From Escherichia coli (GTDB lineage: Bacteria > Pseudomonadota > Gammaproteobacteria > Enterobacterales > Enterobacteriaceae): a stretch of 64,000 nucleotides of DNA. Both the position numbers and the translations under genes were made by a program. The notes under the pieces are model-generated. The model had not been told where the DNA came from. It searched no databases and saw nothing but the letters and a program-made list of their open reading frames with translations. Positions 1-46,889 of the stretch are shown in pieces. The stretch lies in NCBI RefSeq assembly GCF_030013595.1, contig NZ_CP122768.1, one strand, 5' to 3'. Numbering within the stretch: position 1 is the first letter of the stretch; the number at the start of each line of letters is the position of its first letter.

Positions 1-222
1 ATGCGCGATCACAAAATCCTTATTGCTTCAGGTTCCCGGCGCAATGTGCCAATGCAGGAATATATGGATCGCGGCTATTTCACAGTGAAAGAAACAGCGG
101 TCAATACAAATCACGGAATACAGATATCGTTCACCACAAAAATCACCGGGCGTGGCCAACAGTGGCTGACCAGAAAGCTGCTCGATAACGGAATGCTGAA
201 AGTAACAGGGGAGGCTGCTTAA
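1..222 (+). CDS. Hypothetical phage nin-region protein, possibly truncated at the window edge
   Basis: ORF immediately upstream of ybcO-like/rusA in the same direction; no family recognised. Confidence 0.35.
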   Translation: MRDHKILIASGSRRNVPMQEYMDRGYFTVKETAVNTNHGIQISFTTKITGRGQQWLTRKLLDNGMLKVTGEAA

Positions 223-5403: not shown

Positions 5404-5892
5404 ATGGCAGCACCAAAGGGCAACCGATTTTGGGAGGCCCGCAGTAGTCATGGGCGAAATCCTAAATTCGAATCGCCTGAGGCGCTGTGGGCTGCTTGTT
5501 GTGAATACTTCGAGTGGGTAGAAGCTAACCCGCTATGGGAGATGAAGGCGTTCTCGTATCAGGGTGAAGTGATACAAGAGCCTATCGCCAAGATGCGAGC
5601 GATGACCATTACCGGACTCACTCTGTTCATTGATGTGACGCTTGAAACATGGCGCACATATCGCCTGCGAGAAGATTTATCTGAAGTCGTTACGCGAGCA
5701 GAGCAGGTCATCTACGACCAGAAATTCTCTGGCGCAGCCGCTGACCTTCTCAACGCTAACATCATCGCCCGTGATTTGGGCCTCAAAGAGCAGTCGCAAG
5801 TTGAAGACGTGACACCTGATAAGGGAGATCGCGATAAGCGACGCTCTCGTATCAAGGAGCTATTCAACCGTGGAACTGGACGCGATTCTTGA
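5404..5892 (+). CDS. Terminase small subunit (P22 gp3-like)
   Basis: 162 aa; [29 protein letters not shown]... recalled as P22 gene 3 product. Confidence 0.85.
5671..5692 (+). other. Putative pac site (headful packaging initiation) inside the small terminase gene
   Basis: Sequence gaagatttatctgaagtcgtta matches my recollection of the P22 pac site, which lies within gene 3. Confidence 0.5.
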
Positions 5893-7369
5893 TAACCTGA
5901 GCGACGAAGAGCAAATCGAGTTGCTCGAGCTACTCGAAGAAGAAGAGAACTACCGGAACACACACCTGCTATATGAATTTACGCCATACAGCAAACAGCG
6001 TGAGTTCATCGACGCCGGGCATGACTATCCAGAGCGCTGTTTTATGGCTGGTAACCAGCTTGGTAAGTCATTTACTGGTGCTGCTGAAGTCGCGTTTCAC
6101 CTTACCGGGCGTTATCCGGGCACAAAAGGCTATCCGGCTGATGGTAAATATGGTGGGGAGTGGAAAGGTAAGCGTTTCTATGAGCCTGTTGTCTTCTGGA
6201 TTGGCGGCGAGACAAACGAGACTGTAACCAAAACGACTCAACGCATCCTGTGCGGTCGTATCGAAGAGAATGATGAGCCTGGCTACGGCTCCATACCGAA
6301 AGAGGACATCATTAGCTGGAAGAAGTCTCCTTTCTTTCCGAACCTTGTTGATCACCTTCTGGTTAAGCATCACACGGCTGATGGCGTTGAAGATGGCATT
6401 TCAATCTGCTACTTCAAGCCATACTCGCAAGGTCGTGCTCGCTGGCAGGGTGACACAATCCACGGAGTGTGGTTTGACGAAGAACCACCATACAGCATTT
6501 ATGGCGAAGGGCTTACCCGTACCAACAAATACGGGCAATTCTCAATCCTGACGTTTACCCCGCTGATGGGGATGTCTGACGTTGTTACCAAGTTCCTGAA
6601 GAATCCCAGCAAGTCGCAGAAAGTGGTCAACATGACCATCTATGACGCTGAGCACTATACCGACGAGCAGAAAGAGCAAATCATCGCATCCTATCCAGAG
6701 CATGAGAGAGAGGCTCGAGCTCGCGGTATTCCTACGATGGGTAGTGGTCGAATCTTCCAGATACCGGAAGAGACGATTAAGTGTCAGCCGTTCGAGTGTC
6801 CTGATCACTTCTACGTAATTGGCGGGATGGATTTCGGATGGGATCACCCTCAGGCGCAGGTTCAGCTTTGGTGGGATAAGGACGCAGACACAATCTACGT
6901 TTCGCGCGTGTGGAAGGCGAAAGAAAAGACAGCTGTTCAGGCGTGGGGAGCCGTTAAACCATGGGCGCATAAAGTGCCAACCGCATGGCCCCATGACGGA
7001 AACCAGCACGAGAAGGGCGGCGGTGAGCAGCTTAAAGGGCAGTACGCGGACGCTGGTTTTATGATGTTGCAGGAGCATGCGACATGGCCTGATGGCGGTA
7101 ACGCTGTGGAGCCTGGAATCACTGAATTGCGCGACATGATGCTTGATGGTCGCTTCAAAGTATTCAACACCTGTGAGCCATTCTTTGAGGAGTTCCGCCT
7201 CTATCACCGTGATGAAAACGGGAAGATCGTCAAGCTTAACGACGACGTGCTATCCGCCGTTCGCTATGCATACATGATGCGCCGCTTCGCAAAAATGATG
7301 CGCGACATCAAAAAACCAAAAGAGAAAAAGATACCAGCCCCAATCAGGCCCATCGCACGGAGAACTTAA
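5870..7369 (+). CDS. Terminase large subunit (P22 gp2-like)
   Basis: 499 aa (same length as P22 gp2); ATPase/nuclease-type motifs; overlaps terS end. Confidence 0.85.
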
Positions 7370-9535
7370 ATGGCCGACGAAAACAGACTCAATTCCATTC
7401 TGTGTAAGTTTGACGCAGACTGGATGGCGAGCGATGAAGCCAGAACCGAGGCGACAAATGACCTGTATTTTAGCCGAGTGTCGCAATGGGATGACTGGCT
7501 ATCAAACTACACCACCCTGCAATATCGCGGACAATTCGATGTTGTCCGCCCGGTTGTCAGGAAGTTGGTCGCAGAGATGCGCCGGAACCCTATCGACGTT
7601 CTCTTCCGACCAAAAGACGGTGCTAATCCTGATGCTGCCGATGTGCTGATGGGGATGTATCGTACTGATATGCGCCATAACACGGCAAAAATTGCCGTTA
7701 ATGTTGGCGTTCGTGAGCAGATAGAGTCAGGCGTTGGTGCATGGCGTCTGGTCACGCAGTACGAAGACAACGACCCAACAAGCAACAATCAGGTAATCCG
7801 ACGCCTGCCAATCCATGAAGCCTGCTCACACGTCATATGGGACGCCAACAGCAAGCAGATGGATAAGAGCGACGCTAAGCACTGCACGGTGATTAACGCC
7901 TTGTCACGCAATGGCTGGAAAGAGTTCGCAGAGGATTACGGTATTGATCCTGACACCTTGCCATCTTTCCAGAATCCGAACGATACATGGCTGTTTCCGT
8001 GGGTATCGAATGATGTCGTCTACGTCGCTGAGTATTACGAGGTCGAAGAGAAGAAGGAGAAGGTCTTCATCTACCGCGACCCGCTGACAGGTGAGCCGGT
8101 CAGCTATTACCAGCAGGATATCAAAGACGTCATCGACGACCTGGCTAATCGTGGATTCATTAAGGTAGCAGAGCGCAAGGTGAAGCGTCGGCGTGTGTAT
8201 AAGTCGATCATCACCTGCACGCAGATACTGAAAGACCGAGAAAAGATAGCCGGAGAGCATATCCCAATCGTTCCAGTGTATGGAGAATGGTCATTCGCTG
8301 GTGACAAGGAGTGCTACGAAGGAGTGGTAAGGCTGACGAAAGACGGTCAACGCCTTCGTAACATGATCATGTCATTCAACGCCGATATTGTTGCTCGTTC
8401 ACCGAAGAAGAAACCGACCTTCTTCCCTGAGCAAATCGAAGGCTACGAATACATGTACGGTGGAAATGATGACTATCCGTACTATCTGCAGAACAGGACC
8501 GATGAAAACGGTAACGACCTGCCGATTGGTCCAATCTCCTACATGGAAAACCCTGAAGTGCCGCAAGCCAACGCTTATATGCTTGAGGCTGCCACCAACG
8601 CAGTGAAAGAGGTGGCTAGTCTTGGTGTGGATGCGCAGGCAGCAAACTCTCAGGTCGCTTTCGATACCGTCAATCAACTGAACATGCGGGCAGACCTTGA
8701 GACATACGTGTTTCAGGATAACCTGGCTACCGCAATGCGACGTGATGGCGAGATTTATGCCTCAATGGTCAACGATATTTATGACGTTCCTCGTCATGTA
8801 ACGCTGACACTTGAAGATGGAAGCGAGAAAGACGTTCAACTCTATGCGCAAGTTGTCGATTACCAGTCCGGCAATGTGGTCACACTCAACGACATTCGTG
8901 GTCGCTATGAGTGCTATACAGACGTTGGACCATCCTTCCAGAGTATGAAGGAACAGAACCGCGCAGAGATTCAGGAGTTACTCACCAAGGTTCCGCAAGG
9001 TACTCCAGAGTTCCAGATGCTGATGCTGCAATACTTCACGCTCCTTGACGGTAAAGGCGTCGAGATGATGCGAGAGTACGCGAACAAGCAACTGGTGATG
9101 ATGGGGCTGAAGAAACCAGAAACACCTGAAGAGATGGAGATGGTACAACAGGCACAACAACAGCCGCAGCAGCCATCAGCAGAGCAAATTCAGGCGCAGG
9201 GTATCCTTCTGCAAGGTCAGGCTGAATTGCTCAAGGCAGAGAACCAACAGGCACAGATTCAGGTTGAAGCCGCCAAGGTTGAAGCCCAAAACCAACTCAA
9301 CGCCGCGAAGATTGCAGAAATCTTCAACAATATGGACCTCGACAAGCAGGCAGAACTGCGTGAGTACCTCAAGCTAGTAGGTCAATTCCAGCAACAGCGC
9401 AGCAAAGATGCTCGTGCTAACGCTGAGCTGCTTCTTAAAGATGCAGACCAGAATCATTCACAACGCATGGATTTCGCGAATCTTATGCGTCAAGTTCAAA
9501 TCCCCTCCGGCGGAGTAGCCGAGACACCTCAATAA
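7370..9535 (+). CDS. Portal protein (P22 gp1-like)
   Basis: 721 aa; Gln-rich C-terminal coiled-coil barrel region; position after terL. Confidence 0.85.
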
Positions 9536-9548
9536 GAGAGAGTTAATC

Positions 9549-10460
9549 ATGGACCAAACCACCGACATTCAGGCTTCTGAAGAATTAACCCTGCCCGGCA
9601 ATCATGCAGCGGCATCTGCTGATGGCTTAGTTGTCGATAATGCCAACGACAACGCAGGTCAGGAAGAAGGCTTTGAGATTGTCCTGAAAGACGATGAGAA
9701 ACCAAAACAAGACCCGGCAACTAATGCTGAATTTGCCCGTCGCCGCATCGAACGCAAACGCCAGCGTGAGCTTGAGCAGCAGATGGAAGCGGTTAAGCGT
9801 GGAGAGTTGCCGGAGCACCTGCGGGTGAACCCTGAGTTACCAAAACAACCAGACCCTAACGATTATCTTTCCGAAGATGCACTGGCTAAGTACGACTATG
9901 ACCAGAGCCGCGCACTGGCTGCCTTCCAGCAGGCAAACAGTGAATGGCAGATCAAGGCTATGGACGCACGAAGCCAGGCTGTCGCCGAGCAGGGCCGCAA
10001 AACTCAGGAGTTCACCCAGCAATCAGCGCAATACGTCGAGGCCGCCCGTAAGCACTACGATGCAGCGGAAAAGCTTAATATCCCTGACTATCAGGAGAAA
10101 GAGGATGCATTCATGCAACTGGTGCCGCCAGCAGTCGGTGCCGACATCATGCGCCTCTTCCCGGAGAAATCCGCCGCTCTCATGTATCACCTTGGTGCTA
10201 ATCCTGAGAAAACACGCCAGTTGCTGGCGATGGACGGGCAATCCGCGCTGATTGAACTCACTCGACTGTCAGAACGTTTAACTCTCAAGCCTCGAGCAAA
10301 GCCTGTTTCAGAAGCCCCGTTACCTGATGAACCCATTCAGGGACACGCTGTTGCTGCAAATATCTCTGCGATTGAAAAGCAGATGGAAGCGGCAGCAAAC
10401 AAAGGGGATGTAGAGACGTACCGCAAGCTCAAGGCGCAACTGAATAAAGGAATTCGATAA
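9549..10460 (+). CDS. Scaffolding protein (P22 gp8-like)
   Basis: 303 aa, highly charged helical protein between portal and coat. Confidence 0.8.
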
Positions 10461-11755
10461 TGGCATTAAATGAAGGTCAACTGGTCACGTATGCTCTGGA
10501 TGAAATCATCGAAACCGTCCAGAACCTGACGCCAATGGCGTCCAAAGTGACAAAATACACCCCTCCGGCAGAATCCATGCAGCGTTCAAGCAACACCGTG
10601 TGGATGCCTGTTGAGCAGGAAGCGCCAACCCAGACTGGCTGGGATTTAACTGGCAACGCAACCGGGATTCTGGAACTCTCCGTGAAATGCAACATGGGCG
10701 ATCCGGATAACGATTTCTTCGAGCTTCGTGCAGATGACCTGCGTGATGAGCGTTCTTACCGTCGCCGCATCCAGGCATCCGCCAAAAAACTGGCGAATAA
10801 CATTGAGTCAGCGATTGCCAAACAGGCAACTGAAATGGGCTCGCTTGTTGTTCACGATACCCGCGCAATTGGTCCATCTACTGGCCTTTCTGGCTGGGAT
10901 TTTGTGTCTGATGCAGAGCGCCTGATGTTCTCCCGTGAGCTAAACCGCGATATGGGCATCAGTTACTTCCTGAACCCTGACGATTACCGCAAAGCAGGCC
11001 GCAACCTGGTAGATGGTGACATCTTCGGGCGCGTTACTGAAGACGCGTATCACAACGGTACTATTCAGCGTCAGATTGCTGGCTTTGATGAAATTCTTCG
11101 CTCACCGAAACTTCCCGCAGTTACCAAGTCAACCGCTACTGGTGTAACTGTTTCTGGTGCGCAGAAGTTTAAGCCGCAGGCATACACCCTTGATACCGAT
11201 GGTAACAAAGAGAACGTCGATAACCGTGTTGCAACGGTGACCGTATCCTCCACCACCGGATTTAAGCGCGGCGACAAAATCAGCTTCACTGGTGTGAAAT
11301 TCCTGTCTCAGATGGCGAAGAACGTGCTGACTGATGATGCGACTTTCTCAATCACCCGTGTGATCGATGGTACTCACATCGAAATCACGCCGAAGCCGAT
11401 TGCGCTGGATGACGCGTCACTGACAAAAGAAGAGAAGGCTTACGCTAACGTAAACACCTCTCTTGCTGATACCACTCCGGTAAACGTTCTGAACGTGGCA
11501 ACAACCACCGCTAACGTGTTCTGGGCTGATGACTCAATCCGTCTGCTGTCTCAGCCGATCCCGGTAACCCATGAACTGTTTGCTGGCATGAAAACGTCTT
11601 CCTTCAGCATTCCTGGTATTGGTGTTAACGGCATCTTCGCAACGCAGGGGGATATCAACACTCTGTCTGGCAAGTGCCGTATTGCTGTGTGGTATTCAGC
11701 ATGTGCTGTACGACCAGAGGCAATTGGTGTTGGTCTGCCTAACCAGACCGCGTGA
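10460..11755 (+). CDS. Major capsid (coat) protein (P22 gp5-like)
   Basis: 431 aa; [22 protein letters not shown]... closely matches recalled P22 coat protein. Confidence 0.9.
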
Positions 11756-11763
11756 TAACCAGA

Positions 11764-11787
11764 GGGAGCTTCGGCTCCCTTTTTTAT
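11764..11787 (+). terminator. Intrinsic terminator after coat gene
   Basis: Hairpin gggagc-ttcg-gctccc followed by tttttta. Confidence 0.7.
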
Positions 11788-11799
11788 CTGGAGACAAGC

Positions 11800-12054
11800 A
11801 TGACACACATGATCTTTCGTCATGGAGACATGAAGAAGTGGAAAGGCGTTGGATACGACTTTGAAATCGTGAAAGCCGAAGAGCTTCAGGAATATCTGGA
11901 TGCTGGCTGGTTTGCACATCCCGATGACCTTCTGAAGGATGTTGCAGAGTCAGAGCCAGAGCTAGAACCAGAGTCAGAGCCAGAAGAAAAACAGCGTAAA
12001 AAGCCTGGTCGAAAACCTAAGGCGGTAGCAGATGAACCTGACAACGAAGGGTGA
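11800..12054 (+). CDS. Hypothetical acidic small protein between coat and gp4
   Basis: ATG at 11800 preceded by GGAGA; 84 aa with [13 protein letters not shown] acidic repeat; the ORF-track start at 11752 would lie inside the terminator. Confidence 0.5.
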
Positions 12055-12532
12055 TTTAGTTCTTGCGGCATTACGTAAGCTCGGTGTGGCATCAAATGCC
12101 ACGTTAACCGATGTCGAACCGCAGTCTATGGAAGATGGCGTCAACGACCTTGAAATGATGATGGCTGAATGGCTTGGCGGTGATGCGTCACCTGGGATCA
12201 ACGTTGGCTACATTTTCGCTGATGCAGATGTCGCTCCAGATCCGGGCGATGAGCACGGCTTATCAAATAACGCTATAAATGCCGTCATTTTCAACCTTGC
12301 CTGCCGCATTGCTCCAGATTATGCGCTGGAAGCGCCAGCAAAACTTATAACCACTGCCAGATACGGGAAAGAGCGACTCGTCAAACCGTCTGCAATGGAC
12401 AGAGCAAAAGCCGCTAAATGTAAGTCCGGTTATCCAAACCGTATGCCTGTTGGTAGCGGTAACCAGTTGGCGAAGTGGAATGGTTGGAATTACTTCCACC
12501 GAAAGGAACCTTGCGATAACGGGAGCGAATAA
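12032..12532 (+). CDS. Head completion / tail accessory protein (P22 gp4-like)
   Basis: 166 aa, same length and position as P22 gp4. Confidence 0.75.
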
Positions 12533-13951
12533 ATGCCGATTCAGCAACTTCCGCTTATGAAAGGTGTCGGCAAAGACTTTCGAAACGCCGACTATATCGA
12601 CTATCTGCCAGTGAATATGCTGGCTACACCCAAAGAAATCCTGAACAGCAGCGGATATCTTCGCTCATTCCCTGGCATTGCCAAACGCTCTGATGTGAAC
12701 GGTGTATCTCGCGGCGTCGAGTACAACATGGCGCAGAATGCTGTTTATCGTGTGTGTGGTGGCAAGCTGTACAAAGGAGAAAGTGAAGTCGGTGACGTCG
12801 CCGGAAGTGGTCGCGTATCAATGGCGCATGGTCGTACATCTCAGGCGATAGGTGTTAATGGTCAACTGGTCGAGTATCGCTATGATGGCACGATTAAAAC
12901 CGTCTCAAACTGGCCTACAGATAGTGGATTCACTCAGTATGAGCTAGGTTCGGTTCGTGACATTACGCGCTTACGTGGGCGTTATGCGTGGTCAAAAGAC
13001 GGCACTGATTCATGGTTTATCACTGATCTTGAAGACGAATCGCATCCTGACCGCTACAGCGCACAATATCGTGCCGAGTCTCAGCCGGACGGCATCATCG
13101 GCATCGGCACATGGAGAGACTTCATCGTCTGCTTTGGTTCATCGACGATTGAATATTTCTCCCTGACTGGTGCAACCACCGTTGGTGCTGCTTTGTATGT
13201 CGCACAGCCATCACTGATGGTGCAGAAAGGCATTGCCGGGACTTACTGCAAAACGCCGTTTGCTGACTCGTATGCGTTCATCAGCAATCCGGCAACAGGT
13301 GCGCCGTCTGTATACATCATCGGCTCCGGTCAGGTATCACCAATCGCCAGCGCGAGCATTGAGAAAATACTACGCTCCTACACTGCTGATGAACTGGCTG
13401 AAGGCGTGATGGAATCGCTGCGGTTTGATGCGCATGAGTTGCTGATTATCCATCTTCCGCGCCATGTTCTCGTATACGACGCATCTTCAAGCGCCAATGG
13501 TCCGCAATGGTGTGTATTGAAAACAGGCCTGTATGACGATGTGTACCGCGCTATCGACTTCATTTACGAAGGCAATCAGATAACGTGCGGCGATAAGCTG
13601 GAATCGGTGATCGGGAAATTGCAGTTCGATATCAGCAGCCAGTACGACAAGCAACAGGAACACCTGCTGTTTACTCCGTTGTTCAAAGCGGATAACGCCA
13701 GATGCTTTGATCTGGAGGTGGAATCATCGACTGGTGTTGCGCAGTATGCTGACCGCCTGTTCCTCTCTGCAACCACTGACGGCATCAATTACGGTCGTGA
13801 GCAGATGATTGAGCAGAATGAACCGTTCGTTTACGACAAACGCGTTTTGTGGAAGCGAGTTGGGCGCATCAGGAAAAATGTCGGCTTCAAATTGCGCGTT
13901 ATCACTAAGTCACCTGTCACTCTGTCAGGCTGCCAGATAAGGATTGAGTAA
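12533..13951 (+). CDS. Tail accessory protein (P22 gp10-like)
   Basis: 472 aa, same length and position as P22 gp10. Confidence 0.75.
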
Positions 13952-14799
13952 TGGCTGATTCGAATCTCAATGTGCCGGTAATCATTCAGGCTACACGGCT
14001 CGACACATCAGTCCTTCCACGCAATATCTTCTCGCAGTCGTATCTGCTTTACGTTATCGCACAGGGTACTGATGTTGGTAACGTGGCGAACAAAGCCAAC
14101 GAGGCCGGACAGGGTGCTTATGACGCACAAGTCAGGAACGATGAGCAGGATGTGATTCTCGCTGACCATGAGCAGCGAATTTCTGCTGCGGAAGCAACGC
14201 TTGTTAATCATGAGGAGCGAATCAGCCAGGCAGAATCAACTCTTCAGGAACATGAAACGCGAATCGCTCAGAATGAAAGCGATATTGCGTCGCTTGATAC
14301 CAGAGTTCAGTCGCTGGAGTCGCAGGTTTCAGACCATGAATCGCGCATCGATTCTCTGGAGTATGCCACTACTCGCAAAAAGTCAGAGGTTGTTTACTCT
14401 GGCGTATCTGTAACCATTCCGACAGCGCCGACCAACCTTGTTAGCCTGCTGAAAACGCTCACGCCGTCATCAGGCTCGTTGGCACCATTCTTCGACACCG
14501 TTAACAACAAGATGATTGTGTTCAACGAGAACAAAACCTTGTTCTTCAAGCTGTCGATCGTCGGGACGTGGCCCAGCGGAACAGCCAACAGGTCAATGCA
14601 GCTAACCTTTTCCGGCTCTGTTCCTGACACACTGGTAAGCAGTCGCAACTCGGCTACAACAACCGATAACATCCTGTTAGCTACGTTCTTCAGCGTGGAT
14701 AAAGACGGCTTTCTTGCCACAAATGGCAGCACGTTAACCATCCAGTCAAATGGTGCGGCGTTTACTGCCACAACTATCAAAATCATTGCGGAGCAGTGA
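13951..14799 (+). CDS. Tail needle protein (P22 gp26-like) with C-terminal knob extension
   Basis: 282 aa; N-terminal heptad-repeat coiled coil ([41 protein letters not shown]) followed by an extra C-terminal domain. Confidence 0.75.
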
Positions 14800-15266
14800 T
14801 GGAAATAAAGCTCATCGATAATCCGGTGAAGCTTGCAGAATTCCTCAACAACCCGGCAAACACGGGAAATATCGTAGATAGTGGAGATAAATACTACATC
14901 AAGCCTGATGCGGTATACCTCGGCATCTACGAAGGATTAGTGCTGGCTGGCGTTCATGAAGTGCGTAACTTCTGGCATAGCGTTGTTGAATGCCATGCGG
15001 TGTACGACCCCGGATTCCGTGGTGAATATGCACTGCAAGGGCATCGATTATTCTGCAAGTGGCTTCTCGAAAACTCACCATTCCTTAACAGCATTACCAT
15101 GGTTCCTGACACCACGAAATACGGACGGGCAATTATCCGTTTGCTTGGCGCTACCCGTGTTGGTCACCTTGATGATGCGTACATGAGTAACGGAAAACCG
15201 GTTGGAATCACCCTCTATCAATTACCTCGTTCAAAATATGAGGAGCTATTAAATGTTAGTACTTAG
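14796..15266 (+). CDS. P22 gp14-like assembly/ejection-associated protein
   Basis: 156 aa in the position of P22 gene 14. Confidence 0.55.
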
Positions 15267-15933
15267 CGAAAGCTTCAAGAATAAATTGCTTCCCATGAAT
15301 GGGTATATGAAAGGCGGCAGCGACTCCGGATCTAAAGCCCAGGCACGCGCAACTGAAAAGGGCATCGAACTGCAGCGTGAAATGTGGCAAACGAACATGC
15401 AGAACCTTGCACCGTTCACGCCACTCGCTAAGCAGTACGTATCACAGTTGCAGAATCTTTCCTCTCTTCAGGGGCAAGGTCAGGCGCTTAACCAGTATTA
15501 CAACTCTCAGCAGTATAAAGACCTTGCAGGGCAGGCACGCTATCAGAGTCTGGCAGCAGCAGAGGCAACGGGTGGATTAGGCTCTACAGCAACAGGAAAC
15601 CAGTTAGCAGCAATCGCACCTACACTCGGTCAAAACTGGCTGTCAGGTCAGATGAACAACTACAACAATCTGGCAAACATTGGCCTTGGTGCTCTTACAG
15701 GTCAGGCAAACGCTGGGCAGAACTACGCTAACAACGTCAGCCAATTGTATCAACAGCAGGCGGCAGCATCTGCGGCGAATGCTAACCGACCATCAGGACT
15801 GCAATCAGCCTTGGGAGGTGCCATGAGCGGTGCGGCATCAGGGGCGATGATTGGCTCTGTGGTGCCAGGAATAGGTACAGCTGTTGGCGCTATTGGTGGC
15901 GGTATTATCGGTGGTCTTGGATCATTGTTTTAA
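15253..15933 (+). CDS. Ejection (internal) protein, P22 gp7-like
   Basis: 226 aa; Gln/Ala/Gly-rich low-complexity protein with Gly-rich C-terminus; syntenic with P22 gene 7. Confidence 0.7.
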   Translation: MLVLSESFKNKLLPMNGYMKGGSDSGSKAQARATEKGIELQREMWQTNMQNLAPFTPLAKQYVSQLQNLSSLQGQGQALNQYYNSQQYKDLAGQARYQSLAAAEATGGLGSTATGNQLAAIAPTLGQNWLSGQMNNYNNLANIGLGALTGQANAGQNYANNVSQLYQQQAAASAANANRPSGLQSALGGAMSGAASGAMIGSVVPGIGTAVGAIGGGIIGGLGSLF

Positions 15934-15942
15934 GGTGGGAAT

Positions 15943-17325
15943 ATGGCTAGTTGGCAACAAGGAATCAACTCAGGCGGCTTTCTTGCTGGTATCGGTGGGC
16001 AAAACTCAAATGCGCCAAAGGCAAGTGATGTAAGTGAGGCGTTGGCCTATATTCGCCAGAACAACGAAATGGAGCGCTCAGGTCGCAATAACATCGGCCT
16101 TCAGGCGTTGCAGGGGCTTGGTAGTGTCGCTCAAACATATCAAGCCGCAAAGCAACAGGAATTCCAAAAAGAATATGCGGCAGCCATCCAGTCAGGTGAT
16201 CGGCAGCAGGTGCGAGATCTGATGACCAAATATCCTGGTCAATTAGAGAAGATTCAGTCTGGTATGAAGTGGGCAGACGAAGACCAGCGCAATTCTATCG
16301 GCACCTTAGCGGCTGGCGCACGCCTTGCGTCATCGTCTCCAGAAGCAATGCAATCATGGCTGCAAAACAACGCCAAGGAACTGGCGCGCGTCGGTGTTGA
16401 CCCTAACAGCGTTGCTCAGATGTATCAGCAAAACCCTTCAGGATTTGGTGAGTTTGTTGATCACCTTGGAATGGCTGCTCTTGGTCCGATTGATTACTTC
16501 AATGTTCAGGACAAGATGGCTGGTCGTGAAATTGACCGAGGCAAACTGGCAGAGACAATCCGCAGCAATCAGGCTGGCGAGGCGCTAACAGCACGAGGCC
16601 AGAACATCACGATGCGCGGTCAGGACTTATCTGCTTCTACTGCGCGACGAGGTCAGGATTTGGCAATGCAGCGAGCGTCAACAAGACGAATCGCTGGGAA
16701 TGATGAGCGTACAGTTCAGTTATCAGATGGCAGAACTGTAACGGTAGGCGGGAAGCTTCACGGCGCTGGGGCTAATGCGTTCTACGAAGGCATCGACAAC
16801 GAGGGGAATATGGTTCGCGTCCCTGCTGGCTCTATTGCCGCTCCGGCTACATCGGCAGCAAGCGCGCAGAATTACGCAATGAAGAAAGATCTTGATGCAA
16901 TTTCTGGTGCATCAATTGACGATCTTGGCTTCATGACTGGCATTACAGGCTCTTCAGGTTCTCCTGCTCTTGGTGCAGATATTCGTAGCCGTGCATCTGG
17001 TGGTGATCAGAGGAAACTATACAACGCTGCACAGCGAATCCAAGGAAAGATGCAGAATCAGGGCATTGCAGCAGCCAGAGACATGGGGGCATCCGGTATC
17101 AACACCGTTGCAGAAGCAAAGATGTATTTTCAAGGTATGCCACAGGTTGATTTCTCAAGCCCTGAAGCACTGCAACAATCAATGCGCGACATTCAGCAAT
17201 ATACCGACAATTACAACCAGCAATATAACGTTAATGTTGGTAAATCTCAGCGGCAGCAATCTCAACCTGCACAGGTATCACAGCCAGCAGCCAGCAGTAA
17301 CTTTTCTTCACTATGGGGTGATTAA
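15943..17325 (+). CDS. Ejection protein, P22 gp20-like
   Basis: 460 aa; position and composition as P22 gene 20. Confidence 0.7.
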
Positions 17326-19430
17326 TGGCTAAAGCATGGAAAGATGTTATCGCTTCTCCACAGTATCAGGCGTTAGCACCAGAACAAAAAGCGCAGGCTC
17401 AGGAGCAATACTTCAATGAAGTCGTGGCCCCGCAAGCCGGAGAAAGTGTAGAGCAGGCTAAGCAGGCTTTTTATGCTGCCTATCCACTACCATCAACGAA
17501 TGAAATAGACCGATACCAATCAGCAACTCAAAATATTCAACATACATCATCTGATAATTCTCTTGCGTCAGGGTATGCAAAGTTAGCTACTCAGCAAAGA
17601 GAGGGGCTTGAGCGTTCAGCAGAACAGGGAGCCAGTCTTGGGGCTGCGATGCGCGATGCTATAACAGGCGAAAGCCGAATGACTCCAGAGATGGAGAGAC
17701 TGCAAAATGTCGACCTTGCCCCAGAGTTAACCTCACTCAGCATGGATGCTCTAAAAGCTCGATGGTCTCAACTTTTCGGCTCTGACGCATCTCAGGAAAA
17801 GATTCTTCAGAGCATGGGAGCGAAATTAAGGCAGGATGAGAAGGGGAACACTATCGTTTCCCTGCCATCCGGTGATTATGCTCTGAACAAGCCGGGTTTA
17901 TCGCCGCAAGACGTGGCATCGTTTCTGGCTAATGCGCTGGCGTTTACACCAGCGGGCAGGGCTGGAACGGTGCTTGGTGCCATAGGAAAATCAGCAGCTA
18001 CAGATTTAGCACTACAGGGAGCCACCAGCCTTGCTGGTGGAGAAGATATTGATCCGTTACAAACGGTAATTTCTGCTGGCATTGGTGGTATTGGTAAGGG
18101 GCTGGAAAATACAGCGAGTGCGGTTTCGAGGGCTGTTCGTGGTGATATGTCGCCTGAAGCAAAGGCTGCTGTCGACTTTGCATCGGAAAGAAATCTGCCG
18201 TTAATGACCAGTGACATGCTGAAAGATAAAACCTTTATGCAGAGTCAGGCTCAGACATTAGGCGAAAGAGTTCCTTTTTTTGGAACCGGTAAGAATCGGC
18301 TGAATCAACAACAAGCACGAGAAAATTTAGTCAGAACATTTAGCGATGGTCTGGGTGGTATTTCTGATAAACAGCTTTATGAATCTGCGACTAAAGGGCA
18401 ACAAAAATTCATTGAGGCAGCAGGAAAGCGATATAACCGCATAATTGACGCTATGGGGGATACCCCTGTCGATCTCTCAAACACGGTAAAAGCTATCGAC
18501 AATCAGATTGCCGTGTTAAGCCGCCCGGGCAAATCTCAGGATAGAGCCGCGGTAAAAGTCTTGCAGCAATTTAAAGACGATATCACCAGCGGGCCAAATG
18601 ACCTGCGTCTGGCGAGGGAAAACAGAACCGATCTTCGAAAGCGATTTATGGCGTCATCTGACACTGTTGATAAAGATACGCTCCAGAAAGCCAGCGATAT
18701 TATCTACAAGGCATATACGGCGGATATGAAAAAAGCCGTAGCCAAAAATCTTGGAGCAGACGAAGCCATTAATATGGCAAGGGTTGATCGCTCATGGTCT
18801 AAATTCAATGACATGATGGGAAGAACGCGCGTTCAAAAGGCAATAGCCAGCGGCAAGGCCACGCCTGAGGATGTAACAAAACTCGTTTTTAGCCAAAGCC
18901 CATCAGAACGTTCTCAGCTTTACAGGCTTCTGGATGACAATGGTAGGCAAAACGCACGAGCAGCCATAGTTCAGAATGCTGTAGATAAGGCGACTGATCC
19001 GTCTGGAAATATCAGTGTTGAGAAGTTTATTAATGCGTTACACCGGAACAGGAAGCAATCAGCAACTTTCTTTAAAGGCGTACATGGAAAGGAACTGGAC
19101 GGCGTTATTAAATACCTCAACGATACAAGACACGCGGCAAAAGCGAACGTTCAAAACTTAAATGGTCAGCAGCTTTATGGATTGTTAGTTGGTGGTGGCA
19201 TCATAAACGCAGCAGTATTAGCGGGGATGCTAAAAACGGCTGCGTTTGTTGTTCCTGCTGCTGGTGCCGTAGGCGGAGCAGCGAAGGCATACGAAAGCCC
19301 TGTTATACGAAATGCCTTGTTACGTCTGGCAAATACGCCAAAAGGTAGCACAGCATATGACAGAGCGATCAGTACGGTCACACAATCGCTCACCAGAGTC
19401 GCACAGGCATCACAAAAAGAAGCTCAATAA
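17325..19430 (+). CDS. Ejection protein, P22 gp16-like (longer than I recall for P22)
   Basis: 701 aa; last gene of the rightward virion operon. Confidence 0.7.
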   Translation: MAKAWKDVIASPQYQALAPEQKAQAQEQYFNEVVAPQAGESVEQAKQAFYAAYPLPSTNEIDRYQSATQNIQHTSSDNSLASGYAKLATQQREGLERSAEQGASLGAAMRDAITGESRMTPEMERLQNVDLAPELTSLSMDALKARWSQLFGSDASQEKILQSMGAKLRQDEKGNTIVSLPSGDYALNKPGLSPQDVASFLANALAFTPAGRAGTVLGAIGKSAATDLALQGATSLAGGEDIDPLQTVISAGIGGIGKGLENTASAVSRAVRGDMSPEAKAAVDFASERNLPLMTSDMLKDKTFMQSQAQTLGERVPFFGTGKNRLNQQQARENLVRTFSDGLGGISDKQLYESATKGQQKFIEAAGKRYNRIIDAMGDTPVDLSNTVKAIDNQIAVLSRPGKSQDRAAVKVLQQFKDDITSGPNDLRLARENRTDLRKRFMASSDTVDKDTLQKASDIIYKAYTADMKKAVAKNLGADEAINMARVDRSWSKFNDMMGRTRVQKAIASGKATPEDVTKLVFSQSPSERSQLYRLLDDNGRQNARAAIVQNAVDKATDPSGNISVEKFINALHRNRKQSATFFKGVHGKELDGVIKYLNDTRHAAKANVQNLNGQQLYGLLVGGGIINAAVLAGMLKTAAFVVPAAGAVGGAAKAYESPVIRNALLRLANTPKGSTAYDRAISTVTQSLTRVAQASQKEAQ

Positions 19431-30617: not shown

Positions 30618-31958
30618 TCAGAACGCGTAGTTAAAGTTAGTACCGAACAGCCAGGCTTTACCTTCAGACTCGAACTGGTATGGGCCTTCGTTAATTTTCA
30701 CGCTCTGACCGTGCATATAAGAAACACCAACATCGACTGAAGCATCTTTATTAAATGCGTAAGTCGTACCTGCACTCAGCCAGAAACGGTCCTGGTCCGG
30801 AATGGAGATAGAACGATTCTGTGCCGGAACTGGGCTGTCATCAAAGGCGATACCGGTACGGAAGGTCCAGTTATCATCGTAGTAATAAGTGGTTCCCAAC
30901 GCGATGCGGTAAGCATCTTTAAAGCCTTCATGTTTCTGGAACAGCGTGTCGCCACTCGTTGAGGTCGCTTTCAGCTGCTGGAACTGACTCCAGCTGGTGT
31001 AAGCCAGGCTATAGTGAATCGCCCACTGCGGATCAACACGGTTATAACCCGACACTTCCCACATTTCAGGCAGGTTCAGCGTCAGATAACCCGATTGCGT
31101 TGCGCCACCTGTCGCGGTAGGTATTGGTAAACCGTAGTTATTAAACGCACGATTAAGATCGCTGCTGTAGTTACCTTTGAAGTCAATTTTCACTTCAGAA
31201 CGGTAGGTCAGTGCATAGCGGTTATTTTTATCCAGTTCATACAGGATACCGGCGTTCCAGCCAAAGCCCCACTGGTTACCGTTCAGATGAGCGATTTTGG
31301 TATTACTGTCGATACCGTTGGCGGTAGCTGCCAATGCTTGCCCTTGAGGAGTCTGCCCGGCAGGAGATTGCATGATCTGACCGGCAACCAGCTGCCCCAG
31401 ATCGCCTGCGAAACGTTCAATCTTCGCGCGAGCGTAGACGGCGTTGAAACCAAGACCAAAGCTCCATGCATTATTTAAGCGATACGCACCGCTTAAGTTC
31501 AGGTTCATGGTTTCAAGGTCGGTTGTACCCCCGACAGAGCCGCCTGCATAAGTATCGTTAAACTCTGTTGCCAGGCCATAGTTAGAGGTAATAGAAGCGC
31601 CCCAACCAAATTGGTCGTTAATCGGTGCAACAAAGTGCATGTTCGGAACCCATGCCGTAGGCGCGATGTTATCGGCTTTCAGGCTACGACCAGATGGAGA
31701 CGTTCCGCTGATATTTACATCCGGATCAATATAAACCGCACCCGCAGAAAATGTCGGGCGGTCAAACATGGTAATCAATGCGGGGTTACGGCTAACGTTA
31801 CCTGCATCATCGGCAATTGCGCCTTCCCCTGAATAAGCCCGGCCCAGGCCAGAGGAAGAAAATTCGTTTAACTGAAAGCCTGCCGACCAGGCCTGGGTGG
31901 AGATAAGTGCCACTGCGACTGCGAGAGCAGACTTTGTAAACAGGGTTTTCTGGCTCAT
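30618..31958 (-). CDS. fadL: Long-chain fatty acid outer membrane transporter FadL
   Basis: Start at [25 protein letters not shown] signal peptide; beta-barrel ending in ...NFNYAF. Confidence 0.9.
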
Positions 31959-32329
31959 GACCATAACCTCAATGATTTATTTTTATACAAACTATGTTAC
32001 GTGCTGTAACAGGAGCGCGAAGTGTAGGGTCTGAGGTACATCTTAGAAATCAGACCAGTGGCGAGAGTATAGGTCGGACCAGCTGGAATGTTGCAAGTAT
32101 GTTTCTATCTTTTTTCAAATATGATCTAAGAAACGCGATCCAGCTGGCAAAATTTGGAGGTGGCGCACTCATGGATTCGGGTGAATTTTGTTTTAGATCA
32201 TTTTTAAGTGTGATTTCGGTCACTTATCCGATTTTGCAGAATTAACAACTGGAGCAGCACTTTCCGGAAGCGTAAAATATCCACAACGTTTATCTGGCAC
32301 CTTGGGTGCACATACAGAGGAAATCAACG

Positions 32330-32614
32330 ATGAGTAAATGTAGTGCTGATGAAACCCCGGTTTGCTGCTGTATGGATGTTGGCACCATTATGGACAACTC
32401 CGACTGCACCGCGTCTTACAGCCGCGTGTTTGCAAACCGCGCAGAAGCAGAACAAACGCTGGCGGCGCTGACTGAAAAAGCCCGTAGCGTGGAATCCGAA
32501 CCGTGCAAAATCACCCCGACTTTCACTGAAGAGTCTGACGGTGTGCGCCTGGATATCGATTTCACTTTTGCCTGCGAAGCTGAAATGCTGATCTTCCAGC
32601 TGGGTCTGCGTTAA
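32330..32614 (+). CDS. yfcZ: UPF0381 protein YfcZ
   Basis: 94 aa from MSKCSADETPVCCCMDVG...; synteny upstream of fadIJ. Confidence 0.85.
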   Translation: MSKCSADETPVCCCMDVGTIMDNSDCTASYSRVFANRAEAEQTLAALTEKARSVESEPCKITPTFTEESDGVRLDIDFTFACEAEMLIFQLGLR

Positions 32615-32631
32615 TTCCTCTCGGGTACGTA

Positions 32632-32667
32632 CGCCCCTGTCAGTTGTTGGCAGGGGCGTTTTATTTT
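32632..32667 (+). terminator. Intrinsic terminator after yfcZ
   Basis: Hairpin cgcccctg-...-caggggcg followed by ttttatttt. Confidence 0.75.
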
Positions 32668-32794
32668 CTCTTCTACTTTTCTCTCTGTGTCATAGCTCCC
32701 ACTTTCCCTTTTCTCCGCTTGGCTAAATGTAAAAAAATGGTTAAGACTATGATCAGGTCAGACCACTTTATTTATTTTTTTACAGGGGAGTGTT

Positions 32795-34105
32795 ATGGGT
32801 CAGGTTTTACCGCTGGTTACCCGCCAGGGCGATCGTATCGCCATTGTTAGCGGTTTACGTACGCCTTTTGCCCGCCAGGCGACGGCTTTTCATGGCATTC
32901 CCGCGGTTGATTTAGGGAAGATGGTGGTAGGCGAACTGCTGGCACGCAGCGAGATCCCCGCTGAAGTGATTGAACAGCTGGTCTTTGGTCAGGTCGTACA
33001 AATGCCTGAAGCCCCCAACATTGCGCGTGAAATTGTTCTCGGTACCGGAATGAATGTGCATACCGATGCTTACAGCGTCAGCCGCGCTTGCGCTACCAGT
33101 TTCCAGGCGGTTGCAAACGTCGCAGAAAGCCTAATGGCGGGAACTATTCGCGCGGGGATTGCCGGTGGGGCCGATTCCTCTTCCGTATTGCCAATTGGCG
33201 TCAGTAAAAAACTGGCGCGCGTGCTGGTTGATGTCAACAAAGCTCGAACCATGAGCCAGCGCCTGAAACTCTTCTCTCGCCTGCGTTTGCGCGACTTAAT
33301 GCCGGTGCCTCCGGCAGTGGCGGAATACTCTACTGGCTTGCGGATGGGCGACACCGCTGAACAAATGGCGAAAACCTACGGTATTACTCGCGAACAGCAA
33401 GATGCATTAGCGCACCGTTCGCATCAGCGAGCCGCTCAGGCGTGGTCAGACGGTAAACTCAAAGAAGAGGTGATGACTGCCTTTATCCCTCCTTATAAAC
33501 AACCGCTTGTCGAAGACAACAATATTCGCGGTAATTCCTCGCTTGCTGATTACGCAAAGTTGCGTCCGGCGTTTGATCGTAAACACGGGACGGTAACGGC
33601 AGCAAACAGTACGCCGCTGACCGATGGCGCAGCGGCGGTGATCCTGATGACCGAATCGCGGGCGAAAGAATTAGGGCTGGTACCGCTGGGGTATCTGCGC
33701 AGTTACGCATTTACTGCGATAGATGTCTGGCAGGACATGTTGCTCGGTCCGGCCTGGTCAACGCCGCTGGCGCTGGAACGTGCCGGTTTGACAATGAGCG
33801 ATCTGACATTGATCGATATGCACGAAGCCTTTGCAGCTCAGACACTGGCGAATATTCAGTTGCTGGGTAGCGAACGTTTTGCTCGTGATGTACTGGGGCG
33901 TGCACATGCCACTGGCGAAGTGGACGATAGCAAATTTAACGTGCTTGGCGGTTCGATTGCTTACGGGCATCCCTTCGCGGCGACCGGCGCGCGGATGATT
34001 ACCCAGACATTGCATGAACTTCGGCGTCGCGGCGGTGGATTTGGATTAGTGACCGCCTGTGCTGCGGGTGGGCTTGGCGCGGCAATGGTTGTGGAGGCGG
34101 AATAA
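32795..34105 (+). CDS. fadI: 3-ketoacyl-CoA thiolase FadI (anaerobic beta-oxidation)
   Basis: 436 aa thiolase; synteny with fadJ. Confidence 0.9.
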
Positions 34106-36249
34106 TGGAAATGGCATCAGCGTTTACCCTTAATGTCCGTCTGGACAACATTGCTGTTATCACCATCGACGTACCGGGTGAGAAAATGAATACCCTGAAG
34201 GCGGAGTTTGCCTCGCAGGTGCGCGCCATTATTAAGCAACTCCGTGAAAACAAAGAGTTGCGCGGCGTGGTGTTTATCTCCGCGAAACCAGACAACTTCA
34301 TTGCTGGCGCAGACATCAACATGATCGGTAACTGCAAAACGGCGCAAGAAGCGGAAGCACTGGCGCGGCAGGGTCAACAGTTAATGGCGGAGATTCATGC
34401 TTTGCCCGTTCCGGTTATCGCGGCTATTCATGGCGCTTGCCTGGGCGGTGGGCTGGAGTTGGCGCTGGCGTGCCACGGTCGCATGTGTACTGACGATCCT
34501 AAAACGGTGCTCGGTTTGCCTGAAGTACAACTTGGATTATTACCCGGTTCAGGCGGCACCCAGCGTTTACCGCGCCTGATAGGTGTCAGCACAGCATTGG
34601 AGATGATCCTCACCGGAAAACAACTTCGGGCGAAACAGGCATTAAAGCTGGGGCTGGTGGATGACGTTGTTCCGCACTCCATTTTGCTGGAAGCCGCTGT
34701 CGAGCTGGCGAAGAAGGATCGCCCATCTTCCCGCCCTCTACCTGTACGCGAGCGTATTCTGGCGGGGCCGTTAGGTCGTGCGCTGCTGTTCAAAATGGTC
34801 GGCAAGAAAACAGAACACAAAACTCAAGGCAATTATCCGGCGACAGAACGCATCCTGGAGGTTGTCGAAACGGGATTAGCGCAGGGCTCCAGCAGCGGTT
34901 ATGACGCCGAAGCTCGGGCGTTTGGCGAACTGGCGATGACGCCGCAATCGCAGGCGCTGCGTAGTATCTTTTTTGCCAGTACGGAAGTGAAGAAAGATCC
35001 TGGCAGTGATGCGCCGCCTGCGCCATTAAACAGCGTGGGAATTTTAGGTGGTGGCTTGATGGGCGGCGGTATTGCTTACGTCACTGCTTGTAAAGCGGGG
35101 CTTCCGGTCAGAATTAAAGATATCAACCCGCAGGGCATAAATCATGCGCTGAAGTACAGTTGGGATCAGCTGGAGGGCAAAGTTCGCCGTCGTCATCTCA
35201 AAGCCAGCGAACGTGACAGACAGCTGGCATTAATCTCCGGAACGACGGACTATCGCGGCTTTGCCCATCGCGATCTGATTATTGAAGCGGTGTTTGAAAA
35301 TCTCGAATTAAAACAACAAATGGTGACGGAAGTTGAGCAAAATTGCGCCGCTCATACCATCTTTGCTTCGAATACGTCATCTTTACCGATTGGTGATATC
35401 GCCGCTCACGCTACGCGACCTGAGCAAGTTATTGGCCTGCATTTCTTCAGTCCGGTGGAAAAAATGCCGCTGGTGGAGATTATTCCTCATGCGGGGACAT
35501 CGGCGCAAACCATCGCTACCACAGTAAAACTGGCGAAAAAACAGGGTAAAACGCCCATTGTCGTGCGTGACAAAGCCGGGTTTTACGTCAATCGCATTTT
35601 AGCGCCTTACATTAATGAAGCTATCCGCATGTTGACCGAAGGTGAACGGGTAGAGCACATTGATGCCGCGCTGGTGAAATTTGGTTTTCCGGTAGGCCCA
35701 ATCCAACTTTTGGATGAGGTAGGAATCGACACCGGGACTAAAATTATTCCTGTACTGGAAGCCGCTTATGGAGAACGTTTTAGCGCGCCTGCAAATGTTG
35801 TTTCTTCAATTTTGAACGACGATCGCAAAGGCAGAAAAAATGGTCGGGGTTTCTATCTTTATGGTCAGAAAGGGCGTAAAAGCAAAAAACAGGTCGATCC
35901 CGCCATTTACCCGCTGATTGGCACACAAGGGCAGGGGCGGCTCTCCGCACCGCAGGTAGCTGAACGGTGTGTGATGTTGATGCTGAATGAAGCAGTACGT
36001 TGTCTGGACGAGCAGGTTATCCGTAGCGTGCGTGACGGAGATATTGGCGCGGTATTTGGCATTGGTTTTCCGCCATTTCTCGGTGGTCCGTTCCGCTACA
36101 TCGATTCTCTCGGTGCGGGTGAAGTGGTTGCAATAATGCAACGACTGGCCACGCAGTATGGTTCCCGTTTTACCCCTTGCGAGCGTTTAGTCGAGATGAG
36201 CAAGCGTGGGGAAAGTTTTTGGAAAACAACTGCAACTGACCTGCAATAA
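34105..36249 (+). CDS. fadJ: Fatty acid oxidation complex alpha subunit FadJ (enoyl-CoA hydratase/3-hydroxyacyl-CoA dehydrogenase)
   Basis: 714 aa; crotonase motifs plus NAD-binding [10 protein letters not shown]. Confidence 0.9.
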
Positions 36250-36451
36250 GAAGGTCAAAGCTATATGAATCCGCGCTGAATGGCGGAGTGTTGCTCAAAA
36301 TGTAAACGCATATTGACTATACTTACGCCATTGAGGTAAAAAACAGCGTTTCATTCGGTGAATGGATAAGGCACAATGCCGGCCACCGTTTTCTTTCTCT
36401 GGTTTCAGATGAAAGAAAACGGGCGAATCTGGTTAACAAAAGCGGTGCAAT

Positions 36452-36937
36452 ATGCAAGTTTTTATCATGCGTCACGGCGACGCAGCCCTCGATGCCGCCA
36501 GTGATTCGGTTCGTCCTCTGACTACTAACGGTTGTGACGAATCTCGCCTGATGGCGAACTGGCTGAAAGGTCAAAAAGTGGAAATCGAACGCGTTCTGGT
36601 GAGCCCGTTCCTGCGAGCCGAGCAAACACTGGAAGAAGTAGGGGATTGTCTGAACCTGCCTTCCAGTGCAGAAGTTCTGCCGGAGTTAACGCCCTGCGGC
36701 GATGTTGGTCTGGTCAGTGCCTATTTACAGGCGTTGACCAATGAAGGTGTTGCTTCGGTACTGGTGATCTCCCACTTACCCTTAGTCGGGTATCTGGTTG
36801 CTGAGTTATGTCCGGGCGAAACGCCGCCTATGTTTACCACCTCGGCCATTGCCAGCGTAACGCTTGATGAAAGCGGAAACGGCACATTCAACTGGCAGAT
36901 GAGCCCGTGTAATCTGAAGATGGCAAAAGCGATTTAA
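36452..36937 (+). CDS. sixA: Phosphohistidine phosphatase SixA
   Basis: 161 aa; N-terminal RHG catalytic motif (MQVFIMRHGDA). Confidence 0.9.
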   Translation: MQVFIMRHGDAALDAASDSVRPLTTNGCDESRLMANWLKGQKVEIERVLVSPFLRAEQTLEEVGDCLNLPSSAEVLPELTPCGDVGLVSAYLQALTNEGVASVLVISHLPLVGYLVAELCPGETPPMFTTSAIASVTLDESGNGTFNWQMSPCNLKMAKAI

Positions 36938-36950
36938 TACGCATGCACAA

Positions 36951-36987
36951 GGCCCGCTGGTGTAATCTATCGGGCCTTTATTTTTTT
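36951..36987 (+). terminator. Intrinsic terminator after sixA
   Basis: Hairpin ggcccg...cgggcc followed by long T-run. Confidence 0.8.
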
Positions 36988-37598
36988 CTGGCAATGTTGA
37001 ATTTATGCAATCTTATTGTACTAACAATGATCCGCTTGTGATCGAATGGTCTTTATTTTATACGGCATGACGCTTTTATTTGTAAAAATTTACATATTGA
37101 AAGAGAATTTACTTTTATTCATAAATTATTTTTCTGGAAGCATTTTTAGGTAAATAATGACTAAAGTGAAAAATATTATTGGGTCTTGATTTTATATTAA
37201 TTATAGTGTTTTAATATTATATCGTTGCGAAATTAATATCACAAGATAGTCATCGCCATGTGATTGTTTTTGACTTTAATTTATTCACTGGATTTTTGCA
37301 TTTGCCGTTTTTTTGAACTTATTCTTCATTATTGAGATGAAAAGTTTCAGTAATTATTATCCCCGACTATTAATTAAGTTTTTCTAACTTTGAATGTTAG
37401 AAAATCTAAATTGCATCAGTCATATTAAAATATCAACATGTTCGGCGCGCCAAAGAATATTATATCAAGGAACCTGTTTTTTCAGGAGCTGACAATCTGT
37501 TCATTGGCTGCTTAAAAGTCGCTGTAAAAATTGAAGAAGCTCTGTGTCAATATTTCAGTTGGCTTATATTCTAATTATTTATGATTTAAGGACAAATA

Positions 37599-38165
37599 AT
37601 GAGTAAGTTTGTAAAAGCAGCAGTTGCCACGGCAATGCTCATGGGGGCGCTGACTTCAGCATCAGTCGTTGCCGCAGGGAACAACGGTACAGTGAGATTT
37701 TACGGCACAATTGAAGACTCCCCGTGCTCAATTGTTCCTGACGATCATAAACTGGAAGTGGATATGGGCAGCATCGGTACGGGTTCTTTAACCGGCGGCA
37801 AAACAACCACACCAAAAGATTTCCAGATTCGTTTACAGGACTGTAATTTCAATACAGAAACGACAATGGCTACCACATTCACCGGTAATCCGTACTCCAC
37901 TAACGCAGATAACTATTCTCTGTCTAACATGGATAATGGAATTGAAATTCCAAACGTTAGCCTGGTTATCGGTGACCAGCACGGTACAGGTTATGCACTG
38001 GGAGCAGAGATTAAGCAACCTATCGTGAAGGACAGTTCAACGGGAAAAGGCAAGCCTAAACAAACTCTGAACTTTAAAGCATGGTTAGTGGGTGAAACGG
38101 ATGCTGTAACACCAACACCGGCACCGTTTGAAACGCTGACGACGTTCCAGATCACGTATCTCTAA
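37599..38165 (+). CDS. yfcV: Fimbrial major subunit (YfcV-like)
   Basis: 188 aa with signal peptide and fimbrial subunit C-terminal strand; first gene of chaperone-usher operon. Confidence 0.8.
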   Translation: MSKFVKAAVATAMLMGALTSASVVAAGNNGTVRFYGTIEDSPCSIVPDDHKLEVDMGSIGTGSLTGGKTTTPKDFQIRLQDCNFNTETTMATTFTGNPYSTNADNYSLSNMDNGIEIPNVSLVIGDQHGTGYALGAEIKQPIVKDSSTGKGKPKQTLNFKAWLVGETDAVTPTPAPFETLTTFQITYL

Positions 38166-38236
38166 TGTATTTCCCCCATAGCTGCAAAGTTATGGGGTTT
38201 ATAACTACCAAATAACTAAATTATAAAAAATCATGG

Positions 38237-40888: not shown

Positions 40889-40907
40889 CGTGATTAAGGA
40901 ATGATCC

Positions 40908-41657: not shown

Positions 41658-41672
41658 GGCCGGGAGTGTGAG

Positions 41673-44047: not shown

Positions 44048-44067
44048 TAGTTCGTCGTTGTGCACTG

Positions 44068-44104
44068 ATGCCTGATGCGACGCTGAAGCGTCTTATCAGG
44101 CATT
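44068..44104. repeat. REP (repetitive extragenic palindromic) element
   Basis: gcctgatgcgacgctgaagcgtcttatcaggc imperfect palindrome typical of E. coli REP. Confidence 0.8.
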
Positions 44105-44116
44105 CGATGCCAGCAT

Positions 44117-44668: not shown

Positions 44669-44833
44669 TTATCTGTCTCTATTTCTAATTTTCCTACAGT
44701 TTACCCGACTCGTAGCGCAATCGATCGTTTTAAACGTATTTTTCCTCACTCACCGCGCGTGAATGCTGATTTATCGTCATCTTCATGGCAAACTAGCCGC
44801 CGAAATTATTGCGATCATGCCCTGGAGGAATAC

Positions 44834-45766: not shown

Positions 45767-45800
45767 GTAAACACGCAAACACAACAATAACGGAGCCGTG

Positions 45801-46886: not shown

Positions 46887-46889
46887 AAA

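Follow-up and report, generated by a model that had tools for sequence, protein, structure and literature searches.

An exact P22-type pac site in the small terminase gene of a P22-like prophage at argW of Escherichia coli

At which point of its own DNA would a headful-packaging prophage begin to fill heads, and which genes of the host may be taken along if it is induced? This question is raised by a sequence of 22 bp, GAAGATTTATCTGAAGTCGTTA, which lies within the small terminase gene of a P22-like prophage in the 64-kb stretch of E. coli chromosome that was analysed here (further on, the window). The sequence-only reading of this stretch had taken the 22 bp for the pac site of phage P22, and had asked for its comparison with the published pac sequence; the comparison was run, and the two are identical. 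The site in gene 3 of P22 was reportedly described by Wu, Sampson, Hendrix and Casjens in 2002. The features of the gene are as follows.

5404..5892, plus strand: terS, homologue of gene 3, small terminase subunit of 162 aa (PF16677 GP3_package, E 3.5e-33)
5671..5692, plus strand: P22-type pac site of 22 bp, the terminase recognition site (exact and unique; equal to BK000583 4..25)
5672..5688, plus strand: functional core AAGATTTATCTGAAGTC, 17 nt, with the consensus common to host pseudo-pac sites (regular expression of PMC11226127; P22 pac row in Table 1 of PMC11260489)

Over the whole 64 kb searched the 22-mer has a single exact match, at 5671-5692 (+), no other place in the window matches it with up to three mismatches, and none of 100 dinucleotide-preserving shuffles yielded one. 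It takes nucleotides 268-289 of the 489-nt terS, in the orientation of the gene, and is read there as codons E90 to V96 (EDLSEVV) together with base 1 of T97. The same 22 bases form, in the curated genome of P22 (BK000583), the misc_feature 4..25, 'packaging recognition by terminase (pac) site', and the GenBank note of phage g341c (FJ000341) gives pacP22 as gaagatttatctgaagtcgtta, again the sequence of the window, so that the identification was correct. Both the epsilon34 and the g341c records annotate pac at these gene coordinates, nt 268-289. The literature agrees in describing the P22 pac as an asymmetric 22 bp in terS (PMC9611059), and the phage L paper locates a 22-bp pac within gene 3 (PMC8022706). 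The core at 5672-5688 fits the expression AA[GC][AG][TC][AT][AT][ATC][TC][TC]T[GT][ACG][ACG][ACG]TC (PMC11226127) and is the sequence listed for P22 in Table 1 of PMC11260489, where the native context, GAG-AAGATTTATCTGAAGTC-GTT, is exactly that of the window. The feature is confirmed as a textbook P22 pac site in a P22-like E. coli prophage, already known and ordinary.

The small terminase itself is also that of P22: all 162 of 162 residues are identical to the wild-type gp3 sequence. At the level of DNA 483 of the 489 nt agree with P22 gene 3, and the six differences (gene nt 6, 117, 210, 213, 265 and 300) are all synonymous, with none of them inside the 22-mer; within about 60 bp of pac only four are met, again synonymous (210, 213, 265 and 300), and one difference stands 3 nt upstream of the site. 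As the changes are synonymous only, ongoing purifying selection is indicated. Since both the site and TerS are identical to those of P22, the P22 mechanism is the best-supported explanation, and with high confidence we read 5671-5692 as pac, the start site for packaging by a temperate, P22-like headful phage that has integrated at argW.

The element is a P22-like prophage in the E. coli chromosome at argW; it is not P22 itself, and the host is not Salmonella. The window covers its right ~26.7 kb, and the left half (repressor, replication genes, excisionase) lies outside. Position 1 of the window falls within the nin region (YbcO, RusA, Q), and terS is preceded by a Q-type antiterminator, two phage tRNAs, holin, endolysin, Rz/Rz1, rha and a DUF2560 gene. 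The phage-borne tRNAs, tRNA-Asn(GTT) and tRNA-Thr(TGT), sit at 1951-2106 (+) between the Q antiterminator and the holin genes; phage L is likewise reported to have two tRNA genes (PMC8022706). From the large terminase rightwards the main features are these.

5870..7369, plus strand: terL, homologue of gene 2, large terminase, ATPase and nuclease (Terminase_6N E 1.3e-47; Terminase_6C E 5.7e-28)
7370..9535, plus strand: portal protein, homologue of gene 1, the headful sensor in P22 (PF16510 P22_portal, E 2.6e-162)
9549..19430, plus strand: remaining virion module, with scaffold, coat, gp4, gp10, tail needle, gp14-like, gp7, gp20 and gp16-like ejection proteins
23377..25272, plus strand: tailspike with a P22-type head-binding N-terminus (phrog_8280, phrog_7173; tailspike annotation in related E. 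coli prophages)
25349..26539, minus strand: intS-type tyrosine integrase at the right prophage end (Phage_integrase, Phage_int_M, Arm-DNA-bind_3; 'prophage integrase IntS' in relatives)
26665..26739, minus strand: tRNA-Arg(CCT), argW, the right prophage/host junction (attR), found by ARAGORN and followed by yfdC and mlaA

As in P22, terL begins before terS ends. Every ORF of the virion module is full-length and stands in P22 order, with Pfam matches to Phage-scaffold, P22_CoatProtein, P22_Tail-4, Phage_stabilise, Phage_tail_NK, DUF2824, P22_gp7 and Inj_translocase and a match to the phrog_770 DNA transfer protein; a P22-type large terminase and portal and a complete assembly module in P22 order are the make-up of a Lederbergvirus-type phage. 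The ejection-protein genes are followed by the mnt/arc/ant immunity region and then by the tailspike, with full-length ORFs here too and again the order of P22. Homology to a genome without the prophage starts at window position 26664, and the host flank from there onward is 99.9% identical to E. coli strain HCP5S3_I2. The arrangement of tailspike, intS, argW and yfdC is common in E. coli, the best junction match among complete E. coli genomes reaching 91% coverage at 97.3% identity. The integration module is one that we take to be of the KplE1/HK620/Sf6 type.

Several details of the region deserve a record in their own right. In HCP5S3_I2 (NZ_CM149870.1, 36320-48213) argW holds a P4-like, satellite-type element instead of the P22-like prophage, with genes for an integrase, a toprim primase, an Icd-like protein, an ogr/Delta-like protein and a P2 family major capsid protein, and an IS1397 that follows the fimbrial operon of that strain is absent from the window. 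The tail needle of the prophage (13951-14799, +) ends in an Sf6-type C-terminal knob (PF16532), which the P22 needle is not known to have. The ejection protein in the gp16 position (17325-19430, +) has 701 aa and matches also phrog_29864, annotated as a transglycosylase. Between the genes for the ejection proteins and the mnt/arc/ant immunity region there is an accessory slot of low GC. It carries two ORFs at 20006-20879 (+), one of 149 aa in which a SocA/Panacea antitoxin domain is recognised (PF13274, E 1.9e-24) and, overlapping and following it, one of ~140-164 aa (phrog_8366, no Pfam matches); the two are a candidate Panacea antitoxin/toxin pair. In the accessory region adjoining the mnt-like gene a 105-aa ORF at 21464-21781 (-), belonging to phrog_19844 and with no Pfam matches, has an N-terminus resembling a signal peptide.

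Remnants of P22-like prophages that have become cryptic are familiar from argW, KplE1/CPS-53 of K-12 being an example, and the window takes in no more than the right ~26.7 kb of the element. Both facts lend some ground to the thought that a genuine pac of P22 type has come down here by descent but is never used, the prophage being defective, for instance, in the early region outside the window. In that case the site would matter for gene transfer only if a related helper phage supplied the functions. We consider it unlikely: all late genes examined, from Q via lysis, terminase, head and tailspike to intS, are full-length with strong family matches, terS differs from P22 by synonymous changes only, and the intact late region and this purely synonymous divergence argue against a cryptic prophage with an unused pac. 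Closely related phages, moreover, exist in the free state, namely APC_JM3.2, JEP4, IME10 and Louie.

The comparison with these relatives, and with P22, places the prophage more exactly. The closest free phages are the E. coli P22-like APC_JM3.2, IME10, HZ41 and Louie. In APC_JM3.2 and JEP4, which are E. coli P22-like phages with a P22-type terS, the terS DNA is 99.0% identical to that of the window, and roughly half of the first 25 kb of the window has its counterpart in APC_JM3.2 at 95.7%; relatives of this type differ in the tailspike and in the accessory genes that lie between ant and those for the ejection proteins. A complete relative at argW is found in strain SJC33, where it spans ~39.8 kb and runs from torI through terS to tailspike-intS-argW. 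With Salmonella phage P22 the prophage has in common the 22 bp, their position at gene nt 268-289, the TerS protein, the terS-terL overlap and the downstream gene order; it differs in being integrated at argW with an IntS/TorI-type module in an E. coli host, whereas P22 integrates at thrW, and in its TerL, which is 7% off, mostly in the C-terminal nuclease domain, besides the six synonymous terS differences.

Small terminases of the gp3 family occur as cassette-like types, in which the N-terminal ~37 and the C-terminal ~60 residues are identical and a central block has diverged, and this block (gene nt 116-304, window ~5519-5707, by comparison with IME10 and Emek) contains the pac position. 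IME10 and HZ41, whose genomes are otherwise very similar (95%), belong together with Emek to the same gp3 family with the same identical ends and with a core that still fits the consensus; the central segment of IME10 terS (nt 116-304) is only 63.5% identical to the window, the 22-mer of IME10 and Emek is off at 7-8 positions, and EDLSEVV of the window becomes EGFSDVT or EGFSDIT. In phages L, ST64T, epsilon34 and g341c, whose records annotate pac, the site is at the same position with two synonymous bases changed (T273C and A282G); the window has the exact P22 version, not this two-base variant, and the L-type variant has been judged to be of P22 specificity (PMC8022706).

How the site is kept in a broader sample can be seen from IMG/VR, in which relatives of TerS are encoded on 455 contigs. 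Among the best 80 of these 455 relatives the exact 22-mer is present in 76, and the other four carry the single change A282G, while the terS DNA allele of the window is identical to none of these best 80 loci. Exact copies of the 22-mer number 88 in IMG/VR. Each of them is found at the corresponding place within a gp3-type terS, its flanks being 88% or more identical to terS of the window, and none of the 88 lies outside terS, as on satellites or hitch-hiking elements. Within the 22-mer one of 7 wobble positions varies, against 59 of 163 gene-wide, in an underpowered sample of 64 distinct terS DNA alleles (the 80 IMG/VR loci and the window); it is the expected direction, but with a binomial p of about 0.2 it gives no evidence by itself. 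Sliding identity along the diverged segment tells little more: the core agrees with IME10 at 14 of its 17 nt, but 33 of 173 windows of equal length are at least as conserved, and against Emek and L the core does not stand out in conservation.

The comparisons with divergent alleles are informative in one respect only, the agreement of the substitutions with the experimental consensus. This consensus was derived from P22 transduction hot spots, the host pseudo-pac sites sharing a 17-nt motif (PMC11226127, PMC11260489), and a fit to it is expected by chance at about 1.2e-6 per position. The core position (gene nt 269-285) fits the pseudo-pac expression in the alleles of L, epsilon34, g341c, IME10 and Emek; the core has 3 changes in IME10 and 5 in Emek, and both still fit despite the altered peptide, the chance that three random substitutions in the core would all be tolerated by the consensus being about 0.03. 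The allele of Proteus phage Brookers gives no fit to the pseudo-pac consensus. As the diverged alleles of the former kind still fit, the comparison supports a constraint on pac that would act at the level of DNA across the Salmonella and E. coli members, whose lineages and codon constraints are not independent.

The same numbers bear on the idea that the 22-mer is kept solely as coding sequence for EDLSEVV(T), packaging starting elsewhere or with no specific site. The wobble conservation that falls short of significance and the 33 of 173 IME10 windows that equal or exceed the core are both compatible with it, and so is the fact that sequence-specific binding of P22 TerS to pac was not reproduced or demonstrated in vitro, recognition resting mainly on genetics (PMC9611059). 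We regard this idea as very improbable, since it is contradicted by experiments in P22, which has the identical TerS and site: four wobble-base mutations in pac weaken packaging from it, and terS/pac inserted elsewhere redirects packaging (PMC11260489). The motif shared by host pseudo-pac sites, and the divergent alleles that change the peptide and yet fit this motif, stand against it as well.

The large terminase is 93% identical to P22 gp2 (460 of 497 residues), with differences concentrated after residue ~317. It appears as a mosaic, residues 1-317 having one substitution and the C-terminal nuclease domain being ~80% identical, and such a step from near identity to ~80% suggests a recombination joint inside terL, putatively near codon 317 (about nt 6820). 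Packaging from cos, with fixed cohesive ends and an incidental pac match, for which no support was found, is hardly conceivable and is excluded by the terminase families, as TerL has Terminase_6N/6C and is this close to the P22 headful terminase, the portal is P22-type, TerS is of the gp3 family and not Nu1-like, and an exact 22-nt match has essentially zero chance expectation. A lambda-like terminase (Nu1/GpA) with cos was considered too; the two terminase subunits have matches to no families but GP3_package and Terminase_6N/6C.

Headful packaging and transduction of P22 have been studied experimentally (PMC9611059, PMC8575938, PMC11260489), and by homology to this system we infer the use of the site, the direction of packaging, the size of the headful and the transduction that would ensue. 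A holoenzyme of the TerS ring and TerL would recognise the asymmetric 22-bp pac on replicated phage DNA, and the cut by TerL would fall within roughly 60 bp either side of it; in P22 the initiation cuts fall in a 120-bp region around pac (PMC11226127), which would correspond to the following zone.

5611..5752, no strand assigned: putative cut zone for the initiation of a packaging series, about 120 bp around pac, with approximate limits (PMC11226127)

From there the DNA would be pumped through the portal one way only, toward the 3' end of terS, which is rightwards in the window. The head would be full at about 104-105% of the genome, ~44 kb, and a sequence-independent cut would close one headful and open the next; both the direction of packaging and the headful of ~44 kb are documented for P22 (PMC8575938).

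The pac at 5671 (+) points at the argW junction (26665-26739), which is ~21 kb downstream and so nearer than one headful of ~44 kb. Because pac faces the junction 21 kb to its right, packaging that set in before excision would bring about 22 kb of host DNA into the first headful already, and later headfuls from the unexcised prophage would carry more. By calculation, a first headful of ~43.4-44 kb from the unexcised prophage would end near 49.1-49.7 kb of the window.

26740..49400, plus strand: host DNA that would complete the first headful if packaging precedes excision (PMC8575938 and computed coordinates)

The host genes of this first headful would be yfdC, mlaA, fadL, fadIJ, sixA, the yfc-type fimbrial operon, smrB, prmB, aroC, mepA and yfcA, to roughly epmC/yfcL, and those of the second mnmC, fabB, pdxB, truA, accD, folC, cvpA, purF and beyond. 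Lateral transduction of this kind has been demonstrated for SOS-induced P22 lysogens (PMC8575938, PMC8008629), with replication in situ and packaging before excision in the Salmonella phages P22 and ES18 (PMC8575938). In these two late excision has been demonstrated, whereas the prophage of the window has a different recombination module (IntS/TorI); whether lateral transduction would occur here depends on the timing of excision and on a functional other half of the prophage, beyond the window.

Generalised transduction, in its turn, would result from rare initiation at pac-like sequences of the host. One sequence of this sort, AACGTAATCTTGAGGTC at 59401-59417 (+) in accD, fits the P22 pseudo-pac expression in the same orientation as the prophage pac; against a chance expectation of 0.15-0.18 per window it may mean nothing. 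The ~1 kb of purF that lies within the window contains nothing that corresponds to the pseudo-pac in purF of Salmonella. The claim of the sequence-only reading that the prophage has headful packaging and a capacity for generalised transduction is upheld by homology to P22 (pac, TerS, TerL and portal), but the generalised route alone is too narrow a view: for an integrated prophage, lateral transduction of the right flank would probably be of more relevance than generalised transduction by itself.

As for the spread of the system, a gp3-type terS is found in 472 of 5,426 complete E. coli genomes, and at a DNA identity of at least 95% in about 140 of them (~2.6%). The exact P22 TerS/pac cassette circulates among E. 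coli P22-like prophages, as the present one illustrates. In E. coli records another terS type, with 80-90% DNA identity, is commoner (295 against about 180), and IME10, HZ41 and CurroJimenez are otherwise very similar E. coli phages with this other type.

It may be tentatively suggested, at somewhat less than even confidence, that P22-like phages of E. coli and Salmonella make up one packaging-specificity group, in which co-resident or superinfecting relatives would package each other's DNA, and that on SOS induction lateral transduction would proceed from argW at high frequency. If this is true, the flank mobilised from argW would include the fad genes, the yfc-type fimbrial operon, aroC, fabB and accD, to purF and beyond. 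The significance of the finding beyond annotation is small, and what it adds is the direction of packaging and the host genes carried: the pac site predicts where packaging would start and which way it would run, and with it that, on induction of the prophage, mobilisation is likeliest for the host genes to the right of argW.
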